Shown here piece by piece: positions 3,321 to 61,104 of a DNA stretch of 64,000 nucleotides. Within the stretch, counting starts at the first letter, position 1; the number at the start of each line of letters is the position of its first letter. Under the pieces are notes generated by a model, which was given only the letters and a program-made list of their open reading frames with translations, was not told the DNA's origin and ran no database searches. The stretch covers positions 2,382 to 66,381 of the forward strand of contig JBBTRV010000007.1 of assembly GCA_038065035.1 (NCBI GenBank), written 5' to 3'. A program made the translations under genes and the position numbers. This stretch comes from Patescibacteria group bacterium (GTDB lineage Bacteria > Patescibacteriota > Minisyncoccia > UBA6257 > UBA9933).

Positions 3321-4265
3321 ATGGAAAACAACAACGTAGAAAGAAGTATGGAGATGCGTTTTGGAGACGCGATAATCAAATCGCCGGAAGGTGGTATTCG
3401 TTATGGAGTTTTTGAATTACTTGAAGATAAGAAAATTACGCATGGTTTTAGCGCAATATCGAAAAATATGTCTTTTGGAGCGGAAAAAAGCGGATTAGAG
3501 AGAAGGGCGCTGAATGTTCGGTTAGGACAATTTTTGCGCGAAATTGGGATTCCAACAGAAAAACAAGTTATTATGACGGCAAATCTTTTTAAACCAATTG
3601 GAAACTTTGTAATTATTGGTGAAAAAGGGCTTACCCTAAATCAACTACCGCTACTTCGAGAGATATATGGCGATGATTTGGTACGATCTGCTTCAGATTA
3701 TCCGCGGTTTGTCGGAAGTGAATATGCCGCTGATGGCATATTCACTAATGAACCTGGAATAGCGCTTGAAGCCGTTTCTCGAGATTGTATGCCAATTATT
3801 GTAGCTGTCAGATCTGCTCAAAAGAGTTTAACGGGGATTGTCCATGGCGGAAGACGACAAATTGAAGCTGGTTTGGGTGAGCGTATTGTTGCGTTTTGCC
3901 GCGAATTTGCCGATGCTAGTCCGGAGGAAATATTAATAGGAATAGGTCCTCATATTCGTTCATGTCACTATTTCTTTAATCGCCGTCAGATTGCTGAAGA
4001 TGAAGGGGGGAAAAGCGTTTCGATCAACGAGGAGCGATGGGGTGATTATTTAATAAATAAAAGCAAGGATGTATTTTCTTTAGATATGGAAGGATTATTA
4101 ACACAAGAACTTATTAGCAAGGGCGTTCTTCCTCAATGTGTAGCACGCGCAGATTTATGTAGTTACGATGCGCAAGAACAGAGTTTTTCCGCGGCATCGC
4201 TTCGATATCAAAGCAAGCATAATCTTCCGCCAAGCCGAATGATAACAGTTGCTTTACACGATTAA
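3321..4265 (+). CDS. YfiH/PgeF-family (DUF152, laccase-domain) protein
   Basis: motifs SRDCMPIIVA, GIVHGGRRQ, IGIGPHIRSCHYFF and CSYDAQEQSF align with the conserved Cys/His blocks of E. coli YfiH; start codon uncertain. Confidence 0.6.
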   Translation: MENNNVERSMEMRFGDAIIKSPEGGIRYGVFELLEDKKITHGFSAISKNMSFGAEKSGLERRALNVRLGQFLREIGIPTEKQVIMTANLFKPIGNFVIIGEKGLTLNQLPLLREIYGDDLVRSASDYPRFVGSEYAADGIFTNEPGIALEAVSRDCMPIIVAVRSAQKSLTGIVHGGRRQIEAGLGERIVAFCREFADASPEEILIGIGPHIRSCHYFFNRRQIAEDEGGKSVSINEERWGDYLINKSKDVFSLDMEGLLTQELISKGVLPQCVARADLCSYDAQEQSFSAASLRYQSKHNLPPSRMITVALHD

Positions 4266-6585: not shown

Positions 6586-7038
6586 ATGATACAAAATTGG
6601 AATATTTTCATTCAATTATTTATTGCCGCTGTTCTTGGCGGTTTGCTTGGATTGGAGCGAGCTTTGGCCGGTAAAACAGCTGGACTTAGAACTTTTGCTT
6701 TAGTAAGCATGGGTTCGGCTTTGTTTATTATTATTTCAGAAACAATCGGTAATAATTATCTTGGTATTGCTACTTTTGACCCAATAAGAGTGGCTTCGCA
6801 GATTATCGTCGGCATTGGTTTTTTAGGCGCCGGATTGATTATATTTAAAGAATCAAAAATCAGCGGCCTGACAACCGCGGCTGGATTATGGGTGTCGGCT
6901 GGAATTGGCACTGCGGTTGGCTATAAATTATATTCGATCGCGCTTTTCGTTACTATTTTAACGCTTTTTATTTTTACAATTTTATGGTTTGTTGAAAGCA
7001 AAATTAAAAAAGAAGTTAATATCGATATAGAAAATTAG
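6586..7038 (+). CDS. MgtC/SapB-family membrane protein (N-terminal domain only)
   Basis: LGGLLGLERALAGKTAGLRT signature of the MgtC family; 4-5 TM helices. Confidence 0.7.
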   Translation: MIQNWNIFIQLFIAAVLGGLLGLERALAGKTAGLRTFALVSMGSALFIIISETIGNNYLGIATFDPIRVASQIIVGIGFLGAGLIIFKESKISGLTTAAGLWVSAGIGTAVGYKLYSIALFVTILTLFIFTILWFVESKIKKEVNIDIEN

Positions 7039-7049
7039 AACTTCATTTT

Positions 7050-7790
7050 ATGGAAAATCAAGAAAATTTAGGCATTGACCAAAATAAAAAAAAAGATTAT
7101 TTGTTGCCTTTGAGCATCATTATCGCGGCATTGCTTATTTCCGGCTCTTGGATTTATACAACCGGCTTAAAAAATGTTGAGCCGGAAAAACAAATTAAAC
7201 AACCGGCTGTTTCGGAGTCAAATCTTGAAAATGTAAAGCCGATTTCCAATGATGATTATATTAGGAGTAATCCCAACGCTCCTGTAAAAATTATTGAATT
7301 TTCCGATTTAGAATGCCCGTTTTGTAAACTTTTTCACGGAACAATGAAACGAATAGTTGATGAGTATGACGGAAGGGTGGTTTGGGTTTATCGCCATTGG
7401 CCATTGGAACAGCTTCATTCAAAAGCGAAAACATCGGCTTTGGCGGCAGAATGCGCCGGCGGGTTGGGTGGTAATGATAAATTTTGGCAATATTTGGACA
7501 AATATTTTGAAGCCACACCGTCAAATAATCAAATTGACCTTAGCGAATTGCCTAATTTTGCCGAAAGTATTGGTTTGAATCGTTCTCAATTTGAAAACTG
7601 TTTGCAAAGCGGAAAATATGCGTCAAAAATTGATAATCAAATACAAGACGCAGTTAATTCTAATCCGGAATGTCCGCGTTGCGGCACGCCGTTTAGCGTT
7701 GTGATTGGCAGGAATGGAAAAAAATATCCGATTCCCGGAGCATATCCCTATGAAGACGTGAAAGCGATAATTGAGGAGTTATTAAAATAG
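7050..7790 (+). CDS. DsbA-like thioredoxin-fold thiol:disulfide oxidoreductase with N-terminal membrane anchor
   Basis: CPFC active-site motif inside a thioredoxin-like segment; second CPRC near the C-terminus. Confidence 0.65.
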   Translation: MENQENLGIDQNKKKDYLLPLSIIIAALLISGSWIYTTGLKNVEPEKQIKQPAVSESNLENVKPISNDDYIRSNPNAPVKIIEFSDLECPFCKLFHGTMKRIVDEYDGRVVWVYRHWPLEQLHSKAKTSALAAECAGGLGGNDKFWQYLDKYFEATPSNNQIDLSELPNFAESIGLNRSQFENCLQSGKYASKIDNQIQDAVNSNPECPRCGTPFSVVIGRNGKKYPIPGAYPYEDVKAIIEELLK

Positions 7791-7857
7791 CTTTCAGTTG
7801 CCGTCTATTTTATTTTCACTAAGTTTCAAGCGCTAATAAATAATACTCGTTTCGTTT

Positions 7858-7937
7858 AATTTCCCGACAAAAATTTGGTTTCCGTCGCCGGCTCGCCGCG
7901 CTCGGGACTCCGACCAAATTTTTGTTTCCTGGAAATT
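7858..7937. repeat. long imperfect hairpin: 13-bp AT-rich arms (ACAAAAATTTGGT / ACCAAATTTTTGT) around a GC-rich core
   Basis: seen in sequence; lies downstream of the dsbA-like gene and followed by a T-rich tract; loosely related to elements at 20458, 24728 and 55390. Confidence 0.55.
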
Positions 7938-8006
7938 TACGCTCAACTTGTTTATTTATAATAGCGCTTCCAACAATCGTTCAAATAAAATAAACGGCTC
8001 CTTTAA

Positions 8007-15704: not shown

Positions 15705-15830
15705 AATAAAAAATGTAAAATGTAAATATCAAATATCAAAATGACAATTTAAAATTTAAAGTGAATAAATAATAAAATTATTTTATTTTTTGTTAATTTT
15801 TACATTTTAATATGTTATTTTGCATTTTGA
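15705..15830. promoter_or_regulatory. divergent ruvA/rpsT promoter region with tandem heptamer repeats and long-range inverted repeats
   Basis: AAAATGT x2, AAATATC x2, AATTTAA x2 tandem units; AAAATGTAAAA / TTTTACATTTT inverted copies. Confidence 0.4.
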
Positions 15831-15846
15831 TTTTTAAACTTCTATC

Positions 15847-18346: not shown

Positions 18347-20446
18347 TTATTCTTTTATCGCTTTTAATGATAATCCAATTCTTCCGTCTTCGTCGGCTCT
18401 TATAATTTTGGCCCTTACGGTGTCGCCGACCTTAACAACGTCTTCCACTTTTTCCACAAAGCCGTTTTTGAGTTCAGAAACGTGAATCATGCCGTCTTTG
18501 CCGCCGCCTAAATCTATTATCGCGCCGAAATCCAGGATTTTAATTATTGTTCCTTCAACGATTTCACCAATTTTGAAAATGCGCGTAAGAGACTGGATAT
18601 AGCGGATGGCGGAAACCGCTTCTTCGCGTTTGGCGGCCGCCACAAATACCCGGCCGGTTTGCTCAATATCAATAGTATGAACGCCGGTGTCTTTAATGAT
18701 GGTATTGATAATTTTTCCTCCCGGGCCGATTACTTCGCCGATTTGCTCCGGCATAATATCCAAAGTCATTATCACGGGCGCGTATGGAGAAATTATTTCT
18801 CTTGGTTTACTGATTACTTTATTTATAGCTTCAAAAATTTTCATTTTAGCTTCTTTGGCGCGCTCAAGGGAATTTTTAATAATTTCAAAAGTCAGGCCGT
18901 CAATTTTAACATCGGTTTGAATGGCGGTAATGCCGTTAACTGTGCCCGCGACTTTAAAATCCATGTCGCCATAATGGTCTTCCAACCCCTGAATGTCGGT
19001 TAAGAGTTTATATTTGCCGTTTTCATTAGTGATTAATCCGATTGAAATTCCAGCTAACGGCGCTTTAATCGGAACGCCGGCGTCCATTAATGACATTGAA
19101 GCCGCGCAAACCGTTGCCATTGAAGTTGAACCATTGGAAGACAAAATTTCAGAAACAACTCTGATAGTGTAGGGGAATTCATCTTGCGAAGGAATAATGG
19201 CTTTGACAGCTTTTTCCGCCAGATTGCCATGGCCGATTTCACGCCTGCCAATACCGCCCATTCTGCCTGTTTCGCCGGTGGAATAAGGCGGAAAATTATA
19301 ATGGAGCATAAACCGGCGCTTGCCGGAAACTTCCATTGTTTCAACTAATTGTTCGGCACCCGGAGCGGCTAATGTGGTAACGGCCAAGGCCTGCGTTTCG
19401 CCTCTGATAAACAAGCCGGAGCCGTGCAAGCGTTTCAAGAGGCCGACTTCGGCGTAAAGAGGACGGATTTCATCAAGTTTCCTAGCGTCAGGACGCTTAT
19501 CTGATTCAAGGATGTTTTTACGCACCAGTTTTTTCATTTCTTTTTCAATCAAGTCGTCAACCATTTCCATTTCCATTACTGATTCCTGAAGCAAATATTG
19601 CTTTAAATTTTCTTTTAATTCATTAAGTTTGTTTTTGCGCTCGTTTTTGTCCGGACTGTAAATAACCGGATCTAATTTGCCGTTTAAAAACGCGCTGATT
19701 TTTTCAATAAGCTCGGGAGCTGGTTCAACTGCTTGAATCGCCATTTTCGGCTTGCCGATTTTTAAAGCGATTTCCTTTTGAAAATTTATAAGTTTTTTAA
19801 TTTCCGCGTGAGCGGTTTCAAATCCTTCAATTATTTCTTCTTCTTTGGCTTCTTTGCCAGAAAGCTCAATCATATTGATTTTATTTTCCGTGGCAGAGAT
19901 AAAAGCGTCAAAAGTAATTGGATTTTCTCCGTTAATAAATTGGGAATTTAATGGGTTGATTATTGTTTGATTATTTATTTTGGCGATTCTGGCTCCGACA
20001 ATAGGTCCTTCCCATGGAATCGGCGATATCATTAAAGCCATAGAAGTGGAAAGCAGAGCGATAAAGTCCGGGTCATTCTCTTCGTCGTAAGAAAGTATTG
20101 TTACTACAATTTGCACGTCGCGGCGCAAACGATGATCAAAAAGCGGCCGGATACTTCTGTCTATTAATCGGCCGGAAAGAACGGCGTTTTCTGAGGGCCG
20201 GCCTTCGCGCCGCACGAAGCGCGAGCCGATTATTTTTCCCGCGGCGTAAAATTTTTCTTCGTAATCAACGACTAGCGGGAAATAATCAATTTTTCTGTCT
20301 TCTTTTCCGGCAGTAACAGTTACTAAGACAGTGGTGTCGCCGTAGGTGCCGAAAACAGCGGCGTCAGCTTGGCTGGCTAAATCGGAAATTTCAAATGTTA
20401 ATTTTTGTTCCACGCAATCTATTGAAAATTGTTGTTTGTTTAACAT
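18347..20446 (-). CDS. pnp: polyribonucleotide nucleotidyltransferase (PNPase)
   Basis: two RNase PH domains, then KH and S1 domains (GEIVEGTIIKILDFGAII) at the C-terminus. Confidence 0.95.
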   Translation of the reverse strand: MLNKQQFSIDCVEQKLTFEISDLASQADAAVFGTYGDTTVLVTVTAGKEDRKIDYFPLVVDYEEKFYAAGKIIGSRFVRREGRPSENAVLSGRLIDRSIRPLFDHRLRRDVQIVVTILSYDEENDPDFIALLSTSMALMISPIPWEGPIVGARIAKINNQTIINPLNSQFINGENPITFDAFISATENKINMIELSGKEAKEEEIIEGFETAHAEIKKLINFQKEIALKIGKPKMAIQAVEPAPELIEKISAFLNGKLDPVIYSPDKNERKNKLNELKENLKQYLLQESVMEMEMVDDLIEKEMKKLVRKNILESDKRPDARKLDEIRPLYAEVGLLKRLHGSGLFIRGETQALAVTTLAAPGAEQLVETMEVSGKRRFMLHYNFPPYSTGETGRMGGIGRREIGHGNLAEKAVKAIIPSQDEFPYTIRVVSEILSSNGSTSMATVCAASMSLMDAGVPIKAPLAGISIGLITNENGKYKLLTDIQGLEDHYGDMDFKVAGTVNGITAIQTDVKIDGLTFEIIKNSLERAKEAKMKIFEAINKVISKPREIISPYAPVIMTLDIMPEQIGEVIGPGGKIINTIIKDTGVHTIDIEQTGRVFVAAAKREEAVSAIRYIQSLTRIFKIGEIVEGTIIKILDFGAIIDLGGGKDGMIHVSELKNGFVEKVEDVVKVGDTVRAKIIRADEDGRIGLSLKAIKE

Positions 20447-20457
20447 AGTTTATATTT

Positions 20458-20560
20458 ACAAATACAATCGCAAAAATTTTTCTTCAACTCGCTCACCTCC
20501 GCCAGTTGGCGGACTGCGCTTCCGTTTAGGTTTCAGAAAAAAATTTGCGATTGTATTTGT
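20458..20560 (-). promoter_or_regulatory. long hairpin in the pnp 5' leader: 24-bp AT-rich arms enclosing the GC palindrome CCGCCAGTTGGCGG
   Basis: seen in sequence: 20458..20481 is the reverse complement of 20537..20560; sits 11 nt upstream of the pnp ATG with no SD in between. Confidence 0.55.
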
Positions 20561-20571
20561 ATTGTTTAAAT

Positions 20572-21087
20572 TTATTTTTTTATTATCACTCTCGGCATTC
20601 TTTCCAAATCAATGAAAATATCAGCGGCTTCTTTCAGTTTTCCGGAAGTGTTTCTGCTGAAAGCCGCTACCTCCACTTGTCGGCCAAGCCCCCATTTTAA
20701 ATATTCTACTAATGGTACGAAATCGCCGTCGCCGGTGACTAATATGACTGCGTCTAAAAATCCGGCCATTCTGATGGCGTCAACTGCCATGCCGACGTCC
20801 CAATTGGCTTTTTTCATTCCGCCGGCAAAAATCTGAAGTTCTTTCATTCTAAGCTCAATGCCGGCATTTTCCAAAGCTTCAAAAAAAGCGGCTTCAGCCG
20901 TATCTTGCGCAGAGGCAGTATCGCTTTTAACCACATAGCCGATTGCCCTGATTAATGGGCGGTTAGCGGTAAGATTTTTAATGAGTTCTTTGTAATTTAC
21001 CCGGCCGCGGTATAAATTTTTCGCGCCGTGATAAAGGTTTTGCACGTCAATAAATATGCCGACGCGCTGAGATTTGTGAGTGAGCAT
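20572..21087 (-). CDS. NYN-domain (LabA-like, PIN-superfamily) protein
   Basis: VGIFIDVQNLYH ... DVGMAVDAI ... VLVTGDGDF motifs of the NYN/LabA family. Confidence 0.7.
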   Translation of the reverse strand: MLTHKSQRVGIFIDVQNLYHGAKNLYRGRVNYKELIKNLTANRPLIRAIGYVVKSDTASAQDTAEAAFFEALENAGIELRMKELQIFAGGMKKANWDVGMAVDAIRMAGFLDAVILVTGDGDFVPLVEYLKWGLGRQVEVAAFSRNTSGKLKEAADIFIDLERMPRVIIKK

Positions 21088-22850: not shown

Positions 22851-23186
22851 ATGTTAAAAAAAGATTTACAACAATTTAAAAATCATCTTGAGAAAGAAAA
22901 GAAAGAAATTGAAAGCGAGCTGAAGAAGCATAAAAATATGCAGCGTTTCGGAGGCACGGATACTTTGGATATTGATCAGGAAACCGATGAGTCGGAAACA
23001 TACGTAAACCAATTATCAGTGATGCAGACATATAAAAATCGGCTGGGAGAAATTAATTCCGCTTTGAAAAAGCTTAAAAACGGAAAATATGGCGTTTGCG
23101 AAAAATGCGAAAAAGAAATTTCCGCGAAAGTTTTGAAAGTGAATCCGGAATCAAGGCTGTGCCAAGAATGCAAAAAGAAAAAATGA
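22851..23186 (+). CDS. DksA/TraR-family C4 zinc-finger protein
   Basis: coiled-coil N-terminal part, then C-x2-C-x17-C-x2-C (GVCEKCEKEI ... LCQECKK). Confidence 0.65.
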   Translation: MLKKDLQQFKNHLEKEKKEIESELKKHKNMQRFGGTDTLDIDQETDESETYVNQLSVMQTYKNRLGEINSALKKLKNGKYGVCEKCEKEISAKVLKVNPESRLCQECKKKK

Positions 23187-24715
23187 AAAATTTCTCCAAA
23201 GTTTATTCAGCCGAGCTTGAAGGAATTGACGCGAAAATAATAGAAGTGGAGACTGATATTAATGTCGGCCTCCACTCTTTTAATATTGTCGGCCTGGCGG
23301 ATAAAGCTTTAAATGAAGCCAAAGACAGAGTGAGCGCGGCTTTGAAAAATTCCGGCGTTAAGCCGCCGACGAAAGAAAACCGGAAAATTACCATTAATCT
23401 GGCGCCGGCAGACATTAAAAAAACCGGCTCTCAATATGATCTGGCGATAGCTGTCGGCTATCTTTTAGCAACTAAGCAGATCAAAGGTTTTAATACTGCT
23501 GATAAAATTTTTATCGGTGAGCTTTCTTTAGATGGCTCTTTGCGCCGCGTCAACGGCGGTTTAAATATCGCTCAAATGGCGAAAAAGAACGGTTTTAAAT
23601 TTCTTCTTTTGCCAAAAGAAAATGCCCCGGAGGCCGCGATTATCAAAGGAATCAATATTGTTCCAATAGGAGCATTAGATGAATTAATAAATTTTTTAGA
23701 AGAGCGGATTAGTATTAATTTTCAAAAAGACAGTGATTTGATTTTTAGCAGCGAATCAGCGATTGATATTTCCGAAATAAAAGGCCAGGAAAACGCCAAG
23801 CGGGCATTAAGCATTGCGGCAAGCGGCGGGCATAATATTTTAATGTCCGGTCCGCCCGGAGCCGGCAAAACAATGATGGCTCAGGCCCTAGTTTCAATAT
23901 TGCCTTATCCGGAACTGGAAGAAGCCGTTGAAATAACCAAAATTTACAGCGCTGCCGGACTTCTGGGAAATAAAAATTTTATTAATTTTAGGCCGTTTCG
24001 TTCGCCCCACCACAGCGCGTCTTTAGTTTCGGTAATCGGCGGCGGAGTCACTCCCAAGCCCGGAGAAATCAGTTTGGCCCACAGGGGAGTTTTATTTCTT
24101 GATGAAATTCCGGAGTTTCACCGCGATTTATTGGAAAGTTTGAGACAGCCTCTTGAAAGCGGCAATGTTTCAATTTCCCGAGCCAGGGGGTTTTTGAATT
24201 TTCCGGCAAGATTTTTAATGGTGGCGGCGATGAATCCCTGCCCTTGCGGTTATTTCAACGACTCGGCGAAGGATTGCCGTTGCAGCGCCAATGAAGTTTT
24301 TCGTTATCAGAAAAAAATATCTGGCCCGCTTTTGGACAGGATTGATATTCAAGTTGAAGTGCCGCGCGTAAAAATTGAGGAATTGAGAAAGGCAAAAACC
24401 GATGATTCCGGAGGAAAAATAAAAAGCAAAGTTAAAAGAGCGAGGGAAATTCAAATAAAACGCTTTGCGAAAACTCGGCCGAAAATTTATTTAAATTCGG
24501 AAATGAGTTCAAAACAGACTGATGAGTTTAGCAATTTTTCAGCTGACGCGGAAAGTTTTTTAAAAAATATCCTAGAAAAATCTTTTATTTCCGGCCGGGG
24601 TTATTATCGGTTATTGAAAATCGCCAGAACAATCGCCGACTTTGACGCAGAAGAAAAAGTGAAAAGTAATTATTTAGCCGAAGCGTTTCAGTATAGAGTG
24701 AGGGAGAAAGAATAA
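23183..24715 (+). CDS. YifB/ComM-family Mg-chelatase-like AAA+ ATPase
   Basis: Lon-like N-terminal domain, Walker A GPPGAGKT, GVLFLDEIPEF, C-terminal Mg-chelatase domain; start taken at ATG 23183. Confidence 0.9.
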   Translation: MKNFSKVYSAELEGIDAKIIEVETDINVGLHSFNIVGLADKALNEAKDRVSAALKNSGVKPPTKENRKITINLAPADIKKTGSQYDLAIAVGYLLATKQIKGFNTADKIFIGELSLDGSLRRVNGGLNIAQMAKKNGFKFLLLPKENAPEAAIIKGINIVPIGALDELINFLEERISINFQKDSDLIFSSESAIDISEIKGQENAKRALSIAASGGHNILMSGPPGAGKTMMAQALVSILPYPELEEAVEITKIYSAAGLLGNKNFINFRPFRSPHHSASLVSVIGGGVTPKPGEISLAHRGVLFLDEIPEFHRDLLESLRQPLESGNVSISRARGFLNFPARFLMVAAMNPCPCGYFNDSAKDCRCSANEVFRYQKKISGPLLDRIDIQVEVPRVKIEELRKAKTDDSGGKIKSKVKRAREIQIKRFAKTRPKIYLNSEMSSKQTDEFSNFSADAESFLKNILEKSFISGRGYYRLLKIARTIADFDAEEKVKSNYLAEAFQYRVREKE

Positions 24716-24721
24716 TAATTA

Positions 24722-24744
24722 AGCAGTAAAACAAACTGCTTTTT
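24722..24744 (+). terminator. rho-independent terminator (AGCAGT-AAAACAA-ACTGCT-TTTT)
   Basis: hairpin plus T-run immediately after the comM-like stop. Confidence 0.6.
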
Positions 24745-24864
24745 AGAACCAGAATAATTTTATTCCAGCGATAAAATTTTCTTCCCCCTCGCCCCGACGG
24801 CCCCCACTTTATTGGGGACTAAGCCCGTCGGGGCTACGGGATGTTCTTCAAAACAGTTTGTTTT
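24728..24864. repeat. copy 1 of a ~135-bp intergenic structured element (conserved flanks, covarying GC-rich nested hairpin)
   Basis: left block TTTTAGAACCAGAATAATTTT.TTCCAGCG.TAAAATTTTCTTC and right block CGGGATGTTCTTCAA.ACA are near-identical to 55403..55518; the middle forms CCCCGACGG/CCGTCGGGG around CCCCA/TGGGG. Confidence 0.7.
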
Positions 24865-24865
24865 A

Positions 24866-25372
24866 TTATTTCGCTAATGGGTTTTCCGCGCCCAAAACTT
24901 CAAAATGTAAATGGCATCCTGTAGGACCATGAGTGTTACCGGTATTACCCATATAGCCGATTAATTCTCCCTTACTGACATAATGGCCAAGAGAAGCAGA
25001 GATTTTTTCAAGGTGAGCGTAGCGGGTTTCCGTTTTGTTTGGGTGTTCAATTAAAATAAAAAGACCGTATCCCTCATTCCATCCTTCATTGCCGTCGCCT
25101 AATTTTTGGTCAGGAATAACAATTCCTTCGGCAGCTGCGTAAACCGGAGCGCCGCACCTGTTGGCAATGTCAACCGCGTTATTGTCATGGATAATTCCCC
25201 AATTCCAGCCGGTTGCGGGCGGGGAAAAATAAGAAGAGTTGCCCTTTTTTTGCTTTTTATATTCAACTGATGTTTTTTGAACAAGAGCATCGGAATATTC
25301 TTTAGAAGATTCAACAATCGGCGCTTCAGCGGACTCTTGAATATTTTGGGCGAAGGCGGGTTTCGCAATCAC
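24866..25372 (-). CDS. M23-family peptidase (short; N-terminus uncertain)
   Basis: GNTGNTHGPTGCHLHFEV M23 motif; GTG at 25372; the in-frame upstream region encodes a TM helix but has no canonical start. Confidence 0.75.
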   Translation of the reverse strand: MIAKPAFAQNIQESAEAPIVESSKEYSDALVQKTSVEYKKQKKGNSSYFSPPATGWNWGIIHDNNAVDIANRCGAPVYAAAEGIVIPDQKLGDGNEGWNEGYGLFILIEHPNKTETRYAHLEKISASLGHYVSKGELIGYMGNTGNTHGPTGCHLHFEVLGAENPLAK

Positions 25373-52809: not shown

Positions 52810-55371
52810 CTATTTTATTTTAAAGGCAATTTCTTCATTTTCTAATGTTATATCAATAGCATTTCCTTTGGCAATTTCCTGCCTTAATATTTTTTCCGCC
52901 AAAACACTTTTTATTTTTTCGGAAATTACGCCACGCAAAGGCCGGGCACCGAAAACCGGATCATAGCCCAGCGCGGCGATTTTGCAAATAGCGGCATCAT
53001 TGAATACTAAAGAAATACCATGTGTTGCTTCTAATGTTTTTGTCAAGGCGATTAATTGGAGTTTGGCTATTTCTTCAATATCTCTAATTGAAAGATTTTT
53101 AAATACGACTATTTGCGATAAGCGATTAAGAAGCTCCGGTTTGAAATAAACAGTAAGTTTTTTCTTAATAGTTTCGCTGATTTTTGGCATTGATTCTTTA
53201 GCCTCAATCATTTCTTTGATAAGTTCGGAATTGGCGTTGGATGTGGCAATAATTATAGTATTGGAAAAATCAACGATTTTTCCGAAATTATCAGTAAGCC
53301 GACCGTCGTCAAAAACCTGCAAGAATAAATTTAAAATATCAGGGTGGGCTTTTTCAAACTCATCAAGAAGAATTAAGCTATATGGCTTTTGGCTGATGCA
53401 TTCCGTCAGTTGGCCGCTTGTTTGGCCGTCTGGAGAACCGATAAACCGATAAATGCTTTCTCTGGTTTGGTATTCCGACATATCAAAGCGAACCATTGAT
53501 TCCTCGGAACCAAATTGGATTTTTGACAAATTTTTTGAAAGTTCGGTTTTGCCGACGCCGGTCGGACCAACGAAAAGAAACGCCGCAATTGGCCCTTTTC
53601 CCCTTGATAAGCCGCTTCTGTATTCTCGTAAGGCGCGACTGACGGCGGAAACAGCTGTTTCCTGATTAATGAAAGATTCATGGATTATTTTTTCAAGATT
53701 GAGCAAGTTTTTGGTCTCAGCCTCGCTAGCATGCCTCAATGGGATATTTATTTTTCTTTCAGCAACAGAAATAACATCATTAGCTTTTAAAATTTTATTG
53801 CCGCTGTTTTCCACATAAGATAATGTCTCTTTTAAAAGTTCTTCCGCGCTGGACGGCAGGAGTTTATCCCGAAAATGTTTATGGCTGATGGAAACAGCGC
53901 TTTTTATGGCTCCGAAAGTAATTGTTATTCTATATTTTTTTTCCAAGAGCAAGCTGTCAAAAGTGAGAAGTTTGACAGCTTCATCTTCGCTTATTTCTTC
54001 AACGCGGATAATTTCAAAAGCGTCTTTAAAATCGTTTAAAGATTCAATATATTGTTTGAATTCTTTTGGATAAGTGGCGCCGATTATAGGAATTGAATCA
54101 TGGCTGATTATCGGCATTAGAATATCAGCGGCGTTAAATCCATTATTCGGTGAAGTTTTGATTAAATTATGAATATCCGGAATATAGAGAATAATATTGC
54201 CGCTGGATATTATTTCTTCTATTATTCTGTTTAGGCGGCCGGTTATTTCTTCTGGCGGCGCGCCGGCGATTAAATTGCTGATTGATAAAGCAATTAATCT
54301 TTTATCAAAAAGCGCTTTGGGAATTTCATCTTTAATAATTCCAAAAGCCAAAGCGGCAACTATGGTTTCTTTGCCGCTACCGGGCTCGCCGATAAGCAGA
54401 GCATTGGGCTTTATTACCCTTGATAAAGTGTTAACTAAACGGTCGTATTCTTGCTTATGGCCGATTAAAAAGCCAATTTGTTTTTCTCTGGCTAAATCGG
54501 TAAAATCAACGCCGTAGGCGTCAAGAGTAGGCGTTGGCCGTGCTGTCCAGGCGCGATTCATTACGCGGTGTCTTATTCTTTTTGGTTGGTTGATGAAAGA
54601 GCTTAGATTCACCGGTAATCGGCGCCAAAAGCTGAGATAACCGGCATAATGGCTGAAAATCATGGCGTTTGGCAAGTCATCGGGATTAATGTCAAACATT
54701 TTAAGAATCCGTTGGATAAACGGATTATCAACGGTTCGTAAGGCGACAAACAAGCTTTCCGGCGATATAAATTGATTTTGAACGTAAACAGCTTCATCAA
54801 AAGCCAGTTTTGATATTAATCCGGCTTTTTCAAAGCATTCTTCTTTTGCCGCCCTTATTTTTTTATTTTCTTCGGAATTGATAAATTCATCAATTTTATT
54901 TTCTAATTCAGAGACCGGCACATCCATTTTAATCAAAGCTTTTTTTATATCCGATTGGTGGACTAAAAGTTTTAGCAAATACAGGTAAAAATCTCCGCCA
55001 AGAAGCATTGCTTTATCACACGCCCTTTCAAGGAGAGAAAAACTTGACGGCGTAAGGAATTGGGCGGTGTTGATGTTTTCTTGGGAAAAATCTATTTTTC
55101 TTCTTTCTATTCTCGGAAGATAACGCGTAAATCCAAGAATAGAGCGGTCAGCTTCTTTAATATGAATTAACCGGTCGAGTAAAAATAAGCTTAATAATAA
55201 GCCGGCATAAAAAAGCGGTTTTATTTCAGAAGTAATAAAAACAAAAACTAAAGCGCTAAAAATCAGAATCGCATAAAAAGAATTAATAATCAGCCGCGCC
55301 AAAAATCTAGAGAAAGCGTTCATTTTCAGGCGGCTGTCGTAAAAATGAATTTGAGGCAGGGGATTAGTCAT
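52810..55371 (-). CDS. ClpA/ClpB/ClpC-family two-AAA+ ATPase with N-terminal membrane anchor
   Basis: AAA-1 LLIGEPGSGKETIVAALA and AAA-2 FLFVGPTGVGKTELSK ... RFDMSEYQ motifs; two N-terminal hydrophobic helices replace the canonical Clp N-domain. Confidence 0.8.
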   Translation of the reverse strand: MTNPLPQIHFYDSRLKMNAFSRFLARLIINSFYAILIFSALVFVFITSEIKPLFYAGLLLSLFLLDRLIHIKEADRSILGFTRYLPRIERRKIDFSQENINTAQFLTPSSFSLLERACDKAMLLGGDFYLYLLKLLVHQSDIKKALIKMDVPVSELENKIDEFINSEENKKIRAAKEECFEKAGLISKLAFDEAVYVQNQFISPESLFVALRTVDNPFIQRILKMFDINPDDLPNAMIFSHYAGYLSFWRRLPVNLSSFINQPKRIRHRVMNRAWTARPTPTLDAYGVDFTDLAREKQIGFLIGHKQEYDRLVNTLSRVIKPNALLIGEPGSGKETIVAALAFGIIKDEIPKALFDKRLIALSISNLIAGAPPEEITGRLNRIIEEIISSGNIILYIPDIHNLIKTSPNNGFNAADILMPIISHDSIPIIGATYPKEFKQYIESLNDFKDAFEIIRVEEISEDEAVKLLTFDSLLLEKKYRITITFGAIKSAVSISHKHFRDKLLPSSAEELLKETLSYVENSGNKILKANDVISVAERKINIPLRHASEAETKNLLNLEKIIHESFINQETAVSAVSRALREYRSGLSRGKGPIAAFLFVGPTGVGKTELSKNLSKIQFGSEESMVRFDMSEYQTRESIYRFIGSPDGQTSGQLTECISQKPYSLILLDEFEKAHPDILNLFLQVFDDGRLTDNFGKIVDFSNTIIIATSNANSELIKEMIEAKESMPKISETIKKKLTVYFKPELLNRLSQIVVFKNLSIRDIEEIAKLQLIALTKTLEATHGISLVFNDAAICKIAALGYDPVFGARPLRGVISEKIKSVLAEKILRQEIAKGNAIDITLENEEIAFKIK

Positions 55372-55389: not shown

Positions 55390-55527
55390 CGACAGATTTA
55401 TCTTTTAGAACCAGAATAATTTTGCTCCAGCGGAAAAATTTTCTTCGCCTTCGGCGCGCTGAGTCCGACCGTAGTCGGACGCCAAGCTCAGCGCGCCTGC
55501 GGGATGTTCTTCAAGACAAATTTGTCG
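55390..55527. repeat. copy 2 of the ~135-bp structured intergenic element
   Basis: flanks match 24741..24855 (43/45 and 18/19 nt); the middle forms GCGCGCTGAG/CTCAGCGCGC around TCCGAC-CGTA-GTCGGA; the left arm overlaps the -10 region of the Clp ATPase gene. Confidence 0.7.
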
Positions 55528-55561: not shown

Positions 55562-55906
55562 TTAGTAAATATTAAATAGTAATTTATAAATTATAAAAAT
55601 CGGAATTCCTAGCCAGATAATATAGATTGTGACGGCGATAATAAAAATAAATAAATAAACAATTGTTCCTATGCATAATCTGACGCTTCTGAAAATAAAT
55701 CCCAAAATATAGCCGATAATGCTGCGGTCTTGGTAAAGCGGCTGAAAAAGATGACGTAGAGTTATTTTAAAGGCCAACACGCGGTCTATTTTTTCCAGTT
55801 GGGAGATAATAAAATGAGAATAGACAAAAAAACTTTTAATGTACCAATGCCGCAGGAATTCTTTAATGCGGAATAATAAGCGATTAAGAAGATAAATTAA
55901 TAACAT
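55562..55906 (-). CDS. hypothetical small membrane protein
   Basis: ORF with 2 TM helices; ATG at 55906, 5 nt after the stop of the dehydrogenase gene. Confidence 0.4.
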   Translation of the reverse strand: MLLIYLLNRLLFRIKEFLRHWYIKSFFVYSHFIISQLEKIDRVLAFKITLRHLFQPLYQDRSIIGYILGFIFRSVRLCIGTIVYLFIFIIAVTIYIIWLGIPIFIIYKLLFNIY

Positions 55907-55911
55907 AGCCA

Positions 55912-56949
55912 CTATACTGGCGATATGGAATATTTTGTTTCGCCTTTTTCGAGGTATGATTTAATATTTTCAATATCAGTGTCTAAAATTCTCTGCAATG
56001 CTTCTTTGGTGTTAAAAGCGTTGTGCGGAGTGATAATAATGTTTGGCATATCAATTAAAACATGGCTTGCTAAAACGGTTTTTAAATTATGTCCTTCGGG
56101 ATTGCCGTGGAGCAAAAAAGTTTTTTCATCTTTAATAATTCCCTCTTCTTCCAAAACATCGGTTCCATAGCCGCCGATTTGCCCTTCATTAAGCGCCTTA
56201 ATAAGAGCTTCGGTTTCCACTAACGGTCCGCGGGCGGTATTGATTAACACCGCGCCTTTTTTCATTTTAGCGATATTTTTGCTATTGATAAGATAATGGT
56301 TTGATTCGCTGTAAGGGATATGAAGAGTGATGACGTCGGAATTTGCCAATAATTCTTCAAATGGAACGTATTTAAAGCCGATTTCTTTTTCAAGTTCTTT
56401 GTTGGGATAAACATCAGAGGCGATTACATTCATTCCAAAACCTTTAGCGATTTTTATTGAATATCTGCCGATTCTGCCGGTGCCGACAATGCCGATGGTT
56501 TTTCCGTTCAAGTCAAACCCTTGGAGGCCGTCAAAAGAAAAATCAGCCCGTTCGCGGATTTTGTCAAAGGCCTCGTAAATTTTCCTTGAAAGATTAAGCA
56601 ATAAGCCGAAGGCGAATTCCGCCACCGTATTATCGCCATAGCCGGGCACATAACCGGTTTTGATGTTTTTTTCTTTGGCGATTTTTAGATCAATATGGTC
56701 AAAGCCGGTGGAGCGAGTGGTGATAAGCTTAAGATTTGGGAAACTATCTATAACTTCTTTTTTTACTTCTGAGCCGACGAAAACGGAAATTGCATCAAAG
56801 TCCGTTAGTCCTGAGTTTTGCCGAAGGATTTCTGGCAGATTGTCTTTATTTAACTTTTCTTTACTGAAAAAAAAGTCAGCGTTTGATAGCCGATTTTTAA
56901 CATAATCAACTTCCCAGTCTTCAATCTCAAAAAAAGCGATTTTTACCAT
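55912..56949 (-). CDS. D-isomer-specific 2-hydroxyacid dehydrogenase (D-lactate dehydrogenase-like)
   Basis: NAD-binding GIVGTGRIGR, catalytic R/E/H region (ARGPLV ... HNAF). Confidence 0.85.
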   Translation of the reverse strand: MVKIAFFEIEDWEVDYVKNRLSNADFFFSKEKLNKDNLPEILRQNSGLTDFDAISVFVGSEVKKEVIDSFPNLKLITTRSTGFDHIDLKIAKEKNIKTGYVPGYGDNTVAEFAFGLLLNLSRKIYEAFDKIRERADFSFDGLQGFDLNGKTIGIVGTGRIGRYSIKIAKGFGMNVIASDVYPNKELEKEIGFKYVPFEELLANSDVITLHIPYSESNHYLINSKNIAKMKKGAVLINTARGPLVETEALIKALNEGQIGGYGTDVLEEEGIIKDEKTFLLHGNPEGHNLKTVLASHVLIDMPNIIITPHNAFNTKEALQRILDTDIENIKSYLEKGETKYSISPV

Positions 56950-60181: not shown

Positions 60182-60190
60182 ATAAAATAA

Positions 60191-60225
60191 GGCCAGTGAT
60201 GCGTAAACGCGTTCACTGGCCTTTG
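60191..60225 (+). terminator. terminator hairpin GGCCAGTGA ... TCACTGGCC with short T-run
   Basis: 9-bp stem immediately after the dnaE stop. Confidence 0.5.
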
Positions 60226-60407
60226 ATCACAAATAGTCATCCAATATATTTATTTTTTTTATTGGTGCCGGACTTATGGCAAATTGAATACTAACTATGT
60301 TGTTGCTTCATTGAAGCGTATCCATTTTGCGATAAGCCTTTTGGCTTTAATCACCTTCTTTCTATTCCAGTTCAGGGATTTTTTCGTCTTCTGCCTGGGA
60401 AGTTTCG

Positions 60408-60461
60408 TTAAATAAATTGTACTCCGATGGTTAGTGCTACTGCAGGTGCTCGTATCATCAT
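60408..60461 (-). CDS. putative 17-aa hydrophobic peptide (MMIRAPAVALTIGVQFI)
   Basis: GGAGGTGATA SD directly before tandem ATGs; very short, so it may be a leader peptide or spurious. Confidence 0.25.
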   Translation of the reverse strand: MMIRAPAVALTIGVQFI

Positions 60462-60479
60462 TATCACCTCCTTTTATTA

Positions 60480-60780
60480 AGTTGTGAAAGAGCAATTTAC
60501 CTCAAAAGTTTAAAATCCGGTGAAAACTTTTGAGGGTGACGCCTTGCCAGTAATTTTTATTGGGCAATATGGCGTCTATTAAATTAATTAAATATAATTA
60601 ATTTATTTTTCCATCTGTCGGCGTATTCGCCTGGCTTTCATAGGGCGCTAGCTTACCCTACGGATGGACAGGTAACCGGATTGTCCCTAACCTGTAGGTT
60701 TAGATAGTCGGTTTCTAGAAAACCTCTATCATCCCTAAATTTCCTATAATTATATAATTATACTCATATACAAAATCTTG
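60480..60780. ncRNA. candidate structured non-coding region (class unknown)
   Basis: 12-bp perfect hairpin CCTCAAAAGTTT/AAACTTTTGAGG; nested GACGCC/GGCGTC; a CCTAC..GGACA..TGTCC..ACCTGTAGG block with mutually exclusive helices; GC-rich versus surroundings; no convincing ORF. Confidence 0.35.
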
Positions 60781-60918
60781 TCAAGGGGTGGAGGCAGTAT
60801 TATTTTCCGTAATCTTTTTCTGTTCTACTGGTTTTTTAGCCGGTAGAAAATATTTCTTTCTTTTCTTTTTTCGGGAGTATTCATTTTTACGCCCGACAAA
60901 AATTACATTTGCCATCAT
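60781..60918 (-). CDS. small highly basic protein (45 aa, MMANVIFVGRKNEYSRKKKRKKYF...)
   Basis: AAAAGGAGGTGAG SD; start 1 nt after the stop of the upstream small gene (coupled). Confidence 0.4.
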   Translation of the reverse strand: MMANVIFVGRKNEYSRKKKRKKYFLPAKKPVEQKKITENNTASTP

Positions 60919-60919
60919 C

Positions 60920-61039
60920 TCACCTCCTTTTCTTATTCTTAATTTTTAAAAGAATTAGCCACGTGATAACCGCGCCAAAAATAGATGATCCGAGAATAAG
61001 AGTAAATAATATTATTGTTTGTGATGTTTCTGTTGACAT
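60920..61039 (-). CDS. small single-TM peptide (39 aa, MSTETSQTIILFTLILGSSIFGAVITWLILLKIKNKKRR)
   Basis: AAGGAGGAAATAATC SD before ATG; stop TGA lies inside the SD of the next small gene. Confidence 0.4.
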   Translation of the reverse strand: MSTETSQTIILFTLILGSSIFGAVITWLILLKIKNKKRR

Positions 61040-61104
61040 GATTATTTCCTCCTTATTTTATTTTGATTTAATGCTTAAAACAAGTTAACATATTTTTATT
61101 AGTT

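Follow-up and report, generated by a model that had tools for sequence, protein, structure and literature searches.

Two loci in the window, as we call the whole 64-kb stretch of DNA analysed here, carry copies of the same structured element. Copy 1 takes up the whole 150-nt gap between two convergent genes, a comM/Mg-chelatase-like gene and an M23 peptidase gene, and copy 2 is found between a clpB-like gene and an ORF of 116 amino acids; neither window copy is located within a gene. The neighbouring genes and the parts of both copies are listed below in window coordinates. The strand given for a whole element is the one that folds better, and its parts are given without a strand.

23096-24715, plus strand: comM/Mg-chelatase-like gene, neighbour of copy 1
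24727-24865, minus strand: copy 1, whole element, 139 nt, 144.7 bits with the covariance model
24727-24749: copy 1, left arm of P1, TAAAACAAACTGCTTTTTAGAAC, ending 3' in the invariant GAAC (24746-24749)
24751-24782: copy 1, P2, AT-rich hairpin AGAA-T-AATTTTAT / ATAAAATT-TTCT (helices 3 and 4, 98.7% paired across the aligned copies)
24764-24770: copy 1, invariant loop of P2, TCCAGCG (CGCTGGA on the minus strand)
24786-24840: copy 1, whole GC-rich arm (helices 5 and 6)
24786-24788 / 24838-24840: copy 1, P3a, CCC / GGG
24791-24800 / 24825-24834: copy 1, P3, GCCCCGACGG / CCGTCGGGGC
24801-24817: copy 1, distal hairpin CCCCCA..TGGGG
24818-24824: copy 1, bulge ACTAAGC (family consensus ACCAAGC)
24843-24865: copy 1, right arm of P1, GTTCTTCAAAACAGTTTGTTTTA, starting 5' with the invariant GTTC (24843-24846)
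24866-25372, minus strand: M23 peptidase gene, neighbour of copy 1
52810-55371, minus strand: clpB-like gene, neighbour of copy 2
55390-55527, minus strand: copy 2, whole element, 138 nt, 138.1 bits with the covariance model
55390-55411: copy 2, left arm of P1, CGACAGATTTATCTTTTAGAAC
55413-55444: copy 2, hairpin P2, with the invariant loop TCCAGCG at 55426-55432
55448-55503: copy 2, whole GC-rich arm
55448-55450 / 55501-55503: copy 2, P3a, CCT / GGG
55453-55463 / 55487-55497: copy 2, P3, GGCGCGCTGAG / CTCAGCGCGCC
55464-55479: copy 2, distal hairpin TCCGAC-CGTA-GTCGGA
55480-55486: copy 2, bulge CGCCAAG
55506-55527: copy 2, right arm of P1, GTTCTTCAAGACAAATTTGTCG
55562-55912, minus strand: 116-aa ORF, neighbour of copy 2

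The first-pass annotation of the window had described conserved blocks around a variable middle. The left block, TTTTAGAACCAGAATAATTTT..TCCAGCG..AAAATTTTCTTC, is indeed common to both loci, although with an identity of 40/44 instead of the 43/45 claimed, and all four differences between the window copies affect the two pairs that close hairpin P2. The right block, CGGGATGTTCTTCAA.ACA, is also shared (18 of 19 positions identical). As had been proposed, the GC-rich middles differ in sequence and form the same nested hairpins, with GCCCCGACGG/CCGTCGGGGC around CCCCA/TGGGG in copy 1 and GGCGCGCTGAG/CTCAGCGCGCC around TCCGAC/GTCGGA in copy 2. The inverted repeat said to bracket each copy exists as well (23-nt arms, 87% complementary, in copy 1), but its arms proved to be those of P1, the helix that closes the element. 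Compared with its own shuffles, each window copy folds with z = -5.3 to -8.1, and the minimum free energy of copy 1 is -64.2 kcal/mol on the minus strand versus -55.6 kcal/mol on the plus strand. An 18-mer and a 21-mer block occur exactly twice each in the 64-kb window, with 0.36 and 0.11 chance matches, respectively, in shuffles when three mismatches are permitted. The covariance model, run on the window with its filters off, found no third copy; the next best score, 16.6 bits, came from copy 1 on its reverse strand. On the minus strand, a hairpin that resembles a terminator and has a T-run overlaps the end of copy 1.

Both window loci are members of one repeat family, here named F1, a non-coding palindromic repeat of ~140–150 nt. 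An exact gapped pattern with 25 specified bases, scanned against one genome per species, gave 28 loci, of which 27 were real and one, within a gene of Lawsonibacter, was due to chance. The 27 came from 19 species-level genomes, all of them Patescibacteria/Parcubacteria, labelled Colwellbacteria, Harrisonbacteria, Wolfebacteria, Jorgensenbacteria, Liptonbacteria, Brennerbacteria, ‘Paceibacterota’, Patescibacteria group, and one unclassified bacterium; six automatically named assemblies among the pattern-positive genomes carried a Saccharibacteria label. A metagenome scan with the same pattern added 89 further stretches (86 real and three chance matches). Groundwater from Rifle (RIFCSP) and Hainich was among the sources of the copies. 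A covariance model trained on 29 copies returned 124 matches on the fetched loci, which reduced to 86 distinct full copies, and it also recovered copies without the exact pattern. In a divergent second copy in L064 (90 bits), otherwise invariant helices were changed compensatorily and both unpaired motifs were kept. Further copies were found in CPR genomes only, those of Parcubacteria/Paceibacteria. However, the expectation of many copies genome-wide has to be reduced to a modest number, that is, at least four per genome, with one or two exact-pattern matches per contig of 150–290 kb. Exact-pattern matches reached up to four per genome, and at least four F1 copies are present in each of MHIV01, JAZGAA01, and JACOXB01.

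F1 is thus real and widespread within Parcubacteria, and it is absent from Rfam and the other collections searched. The Rfam check recommended in the first-pass annotation placed the element outside every Rfam family: no match in the window reached a gathering threshold, the best sub-threshold score was 18.3 bits against a threshold of 54, and permissive E-values returned noise. A known ribozyme core, hammerhead or other, was rejected; Rfam gave no match to a ribozyme family, and the junction strands of F1 do not fit the hammerhead core. A tRNA-like element was likewise discarded; ARAGORN detected no tRNA or tmRNA in the window. Searches of viral contigs, GenBank phages, and PLSDB plasmids gave no match to F1, and the searchable literature yielded no account of a comparable element from CPR. 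A profile of the element-encoded peptide obtained a single 39-aa match in the protein database even at E <= 10, in a search whose word index is ill-suited to this query.

The consensus fold of F1 is a rod with a three-way junction formed by P1, P2, and P3. The closing helix P1 comprises ~22 bp; an internal loop of 2x2 or 3x3 interrupts it, beyond which come a single covarying pair and the invariant GAAC/GTTC. Pairing in P1 continues to about 22–25 nt on each side. P2 is an AT-rich hairpin capped by the invariant 7-nt loop TCCAGCG. In P3, a short CCC/GGG helix is followed by one of 9–10 bp that is GC-rich and variable in sequence, together with a distal hairpin; P3 also carries an invariant 7-nt 3' bulge with the consensus ACCAAGC. 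The arms of P1 are complementary in every copy yet covary, with only a loose consensus and two subfamilies. The most conserved parts of F1 are the internal loops, and the termini are its most variable part. An archaeal bulge-helix-bulge intron was rejected, since the internal loop of F1 is symmetric and not staggered.

The suggestion that compensatory stems with conserved unpaired blocks mark a selected RNA or DNA structure was examined with the covariance model and was borne out, with pairing far above that of shuffles. In 81 distinct aligned copies, an alignment that favours the structure because it was fitted to the covariance model, standard pairs occupied 94.4% of cells versus 71.8% in shuffles, both sides had changed in 37 of the 41 pairs, and 735 cells were compensatory. 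None of 500 shuffles matched the observed values, and one of 500 did so for the count of further pair types. Controls with slid partners gave pairing of only 36–54%, and an independent MAFFT/RNAalifold analysis agreed, with compensatory changes in 28/41 pairs.

F1 also shows a clear strand polarity. The minus strand (in the sense of the window) had the lower minimum free energy in 82 of the 86 copies, with means of -76.3 versus -66.7 kcal/mol, and the consensus fold reached -51.9 kcal/mol on the minus strand versus -46.1 kcal/mol on the plus strand. Within P1, the plus-strand A.C combination, equivalent to G.U on the minus strand, was found 83 times versus 10 for plus-strand G.U. These wobbles cluster at core offsets 7, 8, and 11 (13, 13, and 21 of 80 copies, respectively). 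The internal loop of P1 opposes pyrimidines to pyrimidines on the plus strand, so that its minus-strand form is tandem G.A or purine-rich. Since F1 is oriented either way with respect to genes, mutational strand bias cannot explain this polarity. The better structure of the minus strand suggests that a folded single strand of defined polarity, either RNA or ssDNA, is probably the selected form.

Regarding genomic context, 43 of the 86 distinct copies were intergenic with determinable neighbours, seven were located in genes, and 36 were unclassifiable; the intergenic location given by the first-pass annotation is therefore the usual one but not a strict rule, with ~8% of distinct copies lying in frame within genes. 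The 43 intergenic copies were distributed among tandem (15 + 8), convergent (11), and divergent (9) arrangements. The left end of F1 typically begins ~14 nt past the stop codon of a co-oriented gene, and the better-folding strand often differs from the strand read out of the adjacent gene. A riboswitch was rejected on account of the lack of a consistent 5'-UTR position. No conserved promoter or terminator was seen at the copies, and no consistent T-run follows P1. Among the 749 ORFs flanking copies (~770 kb), no recurrent partner gene was detected, the clusters being housekeeping families only, and neither an integrase nor TnpA or TnpB recurred in this flanking DNA. The idea that the element might be a terminal part of an insertion sequence was likewise not supported, as no IS or transposase gene recurs beside copies. 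No target-site duplication was observed on comparing an empty with a filled NifS site, nor a consistent direct repeat in the flanks of 80 copies. One subfamily has TC on both sides of its copies, which is ambiguous as a duplication. No convincing target motif was found at the insertion sites, and the search for an autonomous long version, with left and right halves far apart, gave short 3' remnants only.

The seven distinct in-gene copies occur within four intact conserved genes, namely NifS, MnmA, ParB, and Mpg. A NifS/IscS-like cysteine desulfurase accounts for three of them, which share one loop. ParB has two, both N-terminal and ahead of the match to the ParB domain, and MnmA and a DNA-3-methyladenine glycosylase (Mpg) have one each. 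The inserts in NifS and Mpg share one orientation, read as ..NQNNFAPAAKFSSPSA.., and those in MnmA and ParB have the opposite one, read as ..REKKILPLEQNYSGS... All seven keep the frame and contain no stop codon, despite differing lengths (core of 102–113 nt). NCBIfam confirmed the host genes; the profile matches of NifS and MnmA are split exactly at the insert, that of Mpg is a stretched single match with the insert inside it, and no NCBIfam family model matched an insert itself. Judged by alignment, the NifS insert falls at what looks like a short surface loop of E. coli IscS, and the position in MnmA likewise looks like a short surface loop of E. coli MnmA. The same insertions were present in independent assemblies (L022/L054/L117, L028/L111, L003/L073, and L025/L042). 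The element has 2.0 open frames out of six versus 1.29 in an approximate neighbour-preserving shuffle, a modest excess that carries no argument. No gene split out of frame by a copy was found among the 86 copies; L113 was considered as a split-gene candidate and discarded, as the translations of its flanking ORFs look spurious. The kept frame, the lack of stop codons, and the lack of frame-breaking split genes suggest that the in-gene copies are translated, rather than spliced, and, as read from sequence, would add ~50 residues to their hosts.

The NifS site is filled in some genomes and empty in others. In L022 and L117, the element lies between ..KFF and NQKIS... The site is empty, reading uninterrupted as ..KFFNNQKIS.., in L115, which at 76% amino-acid identity is their nearest relative within the set, and in the outgroup L106. 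The more distant L028 and L003 (58–63% identity) are filled with perfectly intact copies; intact copies in the same loop at such divergence require selection in place, repeated insertion, or gene conversion. The L003 NifS copy and the Mpg copy of L096 share a distinctive long AT-rich distal hairpin, which points to moving or converting subfamilies and not to a single ancient insertion. Further signs of turnover include orphan 3' fragments of ~40 nt in L087 and L058, a neighbouring gene in L010 whose stop is the element's own TAA, copies head-to-head in L064, and three copies within 7 kb in L051. Between the window and other genomes, the element is 82–87% identical, and the best-conserved coding regions are only 65–75% identical.

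Many copies are nested in larger units of 200–520 nt bounded by inverted repeats. One unit of ~420 nt begins with GTAAGAATTCC..GCGTTGTTTACAT, continues with F1 and a second rod, and ends with ATGTAAACAACGC..GGAAATCTTAC; it was found nearly unchanged amid unrelated flanks, three upstream (L027, L102, and L094) and three downstream. L083 joins the upstream flank of one locus to the downstream flank of another, which reflects either recombination or a chimeric assembly join at the repeat. A compensatory U-A to C-G change separates near-identical copies of the L027/L083 type. A second rod family, F2, has the core AAACGGAAGCGCAG-hairpin-CGTGAGCGGGTTGAA and follows F1 at ~50–75 nt in nine loci. The window contains a copy of F2 and a third rod:

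20452-20562: F2 copy
7800-7998: third rod

Between them, F1, F2, and the third rod account for a number of the widest intergenic gaps in what is a very compact window.

On balance, we consider F1 to be probably a selfish, non-autonomous palindromic DNA of the RPE/MITE kind. Its presence in all contexts and orientations, its in-frame survival in genes, the filled and empty sites, the remnants, the nesting, and a conservation above that of housekeeping genes fit a selfish repeat. Such an element would spread within and between genomes, mobility being the putative cause of the observed distribution; it would land mostly between genes and would persist within them only where the frame is kept and the position is a tolerant loop. 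The folded minus-sense single strand may be the substrate of a putative trans-acting enzyme, for which the CGCUGGA loop and the GCUUGGU bulge of the minus strand would be the contact points. Any effect of the two window copies is probably passive only, through stable hairpins where transcripts end. Observations that sit against a selfish element are the lack of a recurrent partner gene near copies, the lack of an evident target duplication, and the fact that its loops, not its termini, are conserved. The perfectly intact copies in one NifS loop at 58–63% identity also count against it, as does the compensatory change between L027/L083-type copies, since this is equally expected of a functional RNA.

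The branched fold with its invariant motifs, the polarity, and the persistence in deep lineages keep both host-RNA and folded-DNA alternatives under consideration. A cis-acting RNA useful to the host would be a transcript-end hairpin that terminates, protects, or processes mRNA in a REP/BIME-like manner and is maintained by host-level selection. Strong covariation with strand polarity, the usual start just past a co-oriented stop codon, and intact copies in distantly related genomes agree with it, as does copy 1, which alone fills its convergent gap and has a terminator-like hairpin and T-run overlapping its end. However, copies occur in both orientations to flanking genes, including the nine divergent, promoter-side positions, and even within coding sequences in both orientations; the adjacent gene often reads the strand that folds less well, P1 is not consistently followed by a T-run, and truncated remnants and empty sites exist, so that we regard this role as unlikely. 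The copies could instead be genes for trans-acting small RNAs, for instance protein-binding ones with a long Y RNA-like closing stem, each copy being an independent gene. Copies inside ORFs or abutting stop codons, remnants and composites, and the lack of a visible conserved promoter or terminator and of a conserved neighbouring protein gene make this highly improbable, despite the rod-plus-junction with two invariant unpaired motifs and the several paralogous copies per genome. The in-gene copies would be harmless if F1 were a small intron-like intervening sequence, removed from RNA by itself or by a host enzyme. CPR bacteria have introns in rRNA genes, and the insertion into the conserved enzymes NifS, MnmA, and Mpg and into ParB, together with a highly conserved fold with invariant junction and loop nucleotides, would be in line with this. 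It is nevertheless disfavoured by the kept frame, the dual orientation, and the mostly intergenic location: 7/7 in-gene copies are in frame and stop-free with differing lengths, one RNA fold cannot serve copies in both orientations, and 43 copies are intergenic versus seven in genes (36 unclassifiable). As no copy among the 86 splits a gene out of frame and Rfam gave no match to a ribozyme or intron family, an intron is very improbable.

A folded-ssDNA site, such as an attC-like recombination site or the end of an IS200/IS605-type (PATE-like) element handled by a tyrosine or HUH enzyme, would agree with a structure that is kept as its stem sequences vary, with one strand that folds better, and with the lack of a visible target-site duplication; the GAAC...GTTC of P1a even faintly resembles the attC-core AAC/GTT. 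Yet CAGAAC / GTTCTTC does not fit RYYYAAC/GTTRRRY, the copies are single and dispersed without cassette arrays, internal sequence conservation far exceeds that of attC, and no integrase, TnpA, or TnpB recurs in the ~770 kb of flanks, which makes such a site distinctly unlikely. A broader proposal is that F1 is more than tolerated junk and is a structured nucleic-acid element of a new class, on which purifying selection acts directly and which has a putative protein partner of its own. It may be a folded RNA or ssDNA intermediate that moves by a mechanism unlike that of known transposons, jointly with nested rods (F2 and others), or it may serve the cell as an RNA module, possibly excised, wherever it is transcribed. 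In either version this is unlikely, and it is retained because the loops do not vary between candidate phyla, the polarity comes with recurrent G.U at three P1 positions, copies persist in the NifS loop across deep lineages, and near-identical copies differ by compensatory changes.

Strongly structured repeats living in frame inside essential genes are, to our knowledge, known essentially from Rickettsia and Wolbachia only. F1, read as a selfish palindromic repeat, would be a second natural example, in free-living or episymbiotic CPR bacteria, and would indicate that this behaviour recurs in reduced genomes. The way in which such elements spread has been a question since 2000, and F1 offers handles on it in its invariant loops, its polarity, and the many metagenomes in which filled and empty sites can be compared. 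For CPR MAGs, conserved proteins would be inflated by ~50 residues where F1 lies within a gene, and the repeat probably gives rise to chimeric assembly joins. The F1 covariance model could serve for annotating the element.

Among known systems, bacterial MITEs (Correia/NEMIS, ERIC, RUP, and YPAL; PMC2229807) resemble F1 in being small (100–200 bp), non-coding, and multi-copy, with stem-loop transcripts, dispersal at gene ends, and nested or composite copies. However, a classical MITE ends in inverted repeats of conserved sequence, duplicates its target (TA or another site), and has a parent insertion sequence, whereas the termini of F1 are variable and neither a duplication nor a parent element was found near its copies. 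REP/BIME palindromes with their RAYT transposases are likewise extragenic, located at 3' ends, and folded as single strands, and REP can stabilise mRNA. They are simple hairpins of 20–40 nt that carry a GTAG motif and are linked to a RAYT gene, while F1 is branched and ~150 nt long, and no RAYT-type gene was seen near its copies. With attC sites, F1 shares a structure kept while stems vary, one favoured strand, and the length range (57–141 bp). In contrast, attC sites have little internal conservation, R/L boxes, and cassette arrays beside intI, none of which applies to F1; this identity was rejected, as ..TCAGAAC / GTTCTTC.. does not fit RYYYAAC / GTTRRRY, the copies are single and dispersed, and no integrase recurs.

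The NCBIfam library includes RPE domain models, and for the insert-bearing proteins it reported the host-gene families only; judged by these protein searches, F1 has no sequence relation to RPE. F1 lies outside the RPE families, all of its matches being in Patescibacteria, a different phylum. The RPE are palindromic repeats of 105–146 bp with long stem-loops (Ogata et al. 2000, cited through PMC2229807); they are mostly intergenic and also fused in frame into 19 protein genes, and the mechanism of their spread is described as not established (PMC2229807). F1 is like them in its size, its long stem-loop palindrome, its several copies in small reduced genomes, its location mostly between genes with in-frame fusions into conserved protein genes, and the lack of a clear target duplication. 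Unlike RPE, F1 was seen in fewer copies per genome, branches at a three-way junction, has invariant loops, and is conserved across distant lineages above the level of housekeeping genes. What F1 adds to the RPE precedent is its branched fold, in which two unpaired motifs are invariant, its clear strand polarity, and a structure that stays intact across deep lineages.

Copies of F1, the palindromic repeat family of Parcubacteria, are often embedded as the left module in larger composites, 200-520 nt long, that carry inverted repeats at both ends, as in the arrangement GTAAGAATTCC..GCGTTGTTTACAT ... ATGTAAACAACGC..GGAAATCTTAC. The second module in these composites is another rod, a copy of F2 (a second rod-like repeat family) or an inverted F1. 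The composite units, the orphan F1 fragments and the further rods of the window are as follows:

L027, ~6990-7430: composite unit containing F1
L083, L094, L102 and L064; also L017, L053 and L029: composite units containing F1
L087, 4150-4200, minus strand: orphan 3' F1 fragment (CCTGCGGGATGTTCCGCACGACA...)
L058, ~295-335: orphan 3' F1 fragment (CCTGCGGGATGTTCCGCACGACA...)
Window, 7800-7998: third rod-like structure, ~200 nt
Window, 20452-20562: copy of F2, rod-like repeat

One composite unit of ~420 nt recurs almost unaltered, with unrelated flanks on either side, and in L083 the upstream flank from one locus is joined to the downstream flank from another, a combination that arose either by recombination or because the assembly is chimeric across the repeat. 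The 3' fragments in L087 and L058, in which the remainder of the element is absent, look like decayed or truncated copies of F1.

In L010 (~3700-3712), the gene to the left of the F1 copy runs on through the arm of P1, the closing helix of the element, and terminates at a TAA within the invariant GAACCAGAATAA of F1, which therefore provides both the C-terminus and the stop codon. In the window, the called start of a clpB-like gene (52810-55371, minus strand) lies 18 nt from F1 copy 2. In its product, the match to Clp_N and the first of the P-loops both fall ~120 residues further along than is expected of a ClpB protein. Perhaps the start was called too far upstream; alternatively, the protein could carry an extension at its N-terminus.

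The third rod takes up the 216-nt gap ahead of a gene that, by eye, we take to be glyA-like, and comprises three nested AT-rich helices (GCCGTCTATTTTATTT/AAATAAAATAAACGGC, AAGCGCTAATAAATAA/TTATTTATAATAGCGCTT and GACAAAAATTTGGT/ACCAAATTTTTGT) enclosing a GC-rich centre, TTCCGTCGCCGGCTCGCCGCGCTCGGGACTCCG. Separately, a long imperfect AT-rich palindrome (15731-15835; 47-nt arms, 70% complementary, 11 nt spacing) lies between divergently oriented genes, within an intergenic gap of 200 nt. The window is otherwise densely packed, and its largest gap by a wide margin (60182-61104, 923 nt) contained no ORF of at least 70 aa and no Rfam or tRNA match.

The F2 copy of the window is flanked by a 699-aa ORF (18347-20446, minus strand), presumably PNPase-like as judged by eye, and by ORF 20572-21087. 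Its AT-rich arms (32 nt, 88% complementary) enclose the GC hairpin TCCGCCAGTTGGCGGA, and its minus-strand core is AAACGGAAGCGCAG..GGTGAGCGAGTTGAAG. In nine other loci, F2 flanks an F1 copy on one side, ~50-75 nt away, and its portion AAAATTTTTCTTC..CTCGC..hairpin..CTGCG is similar to the right two-thirds of F1.
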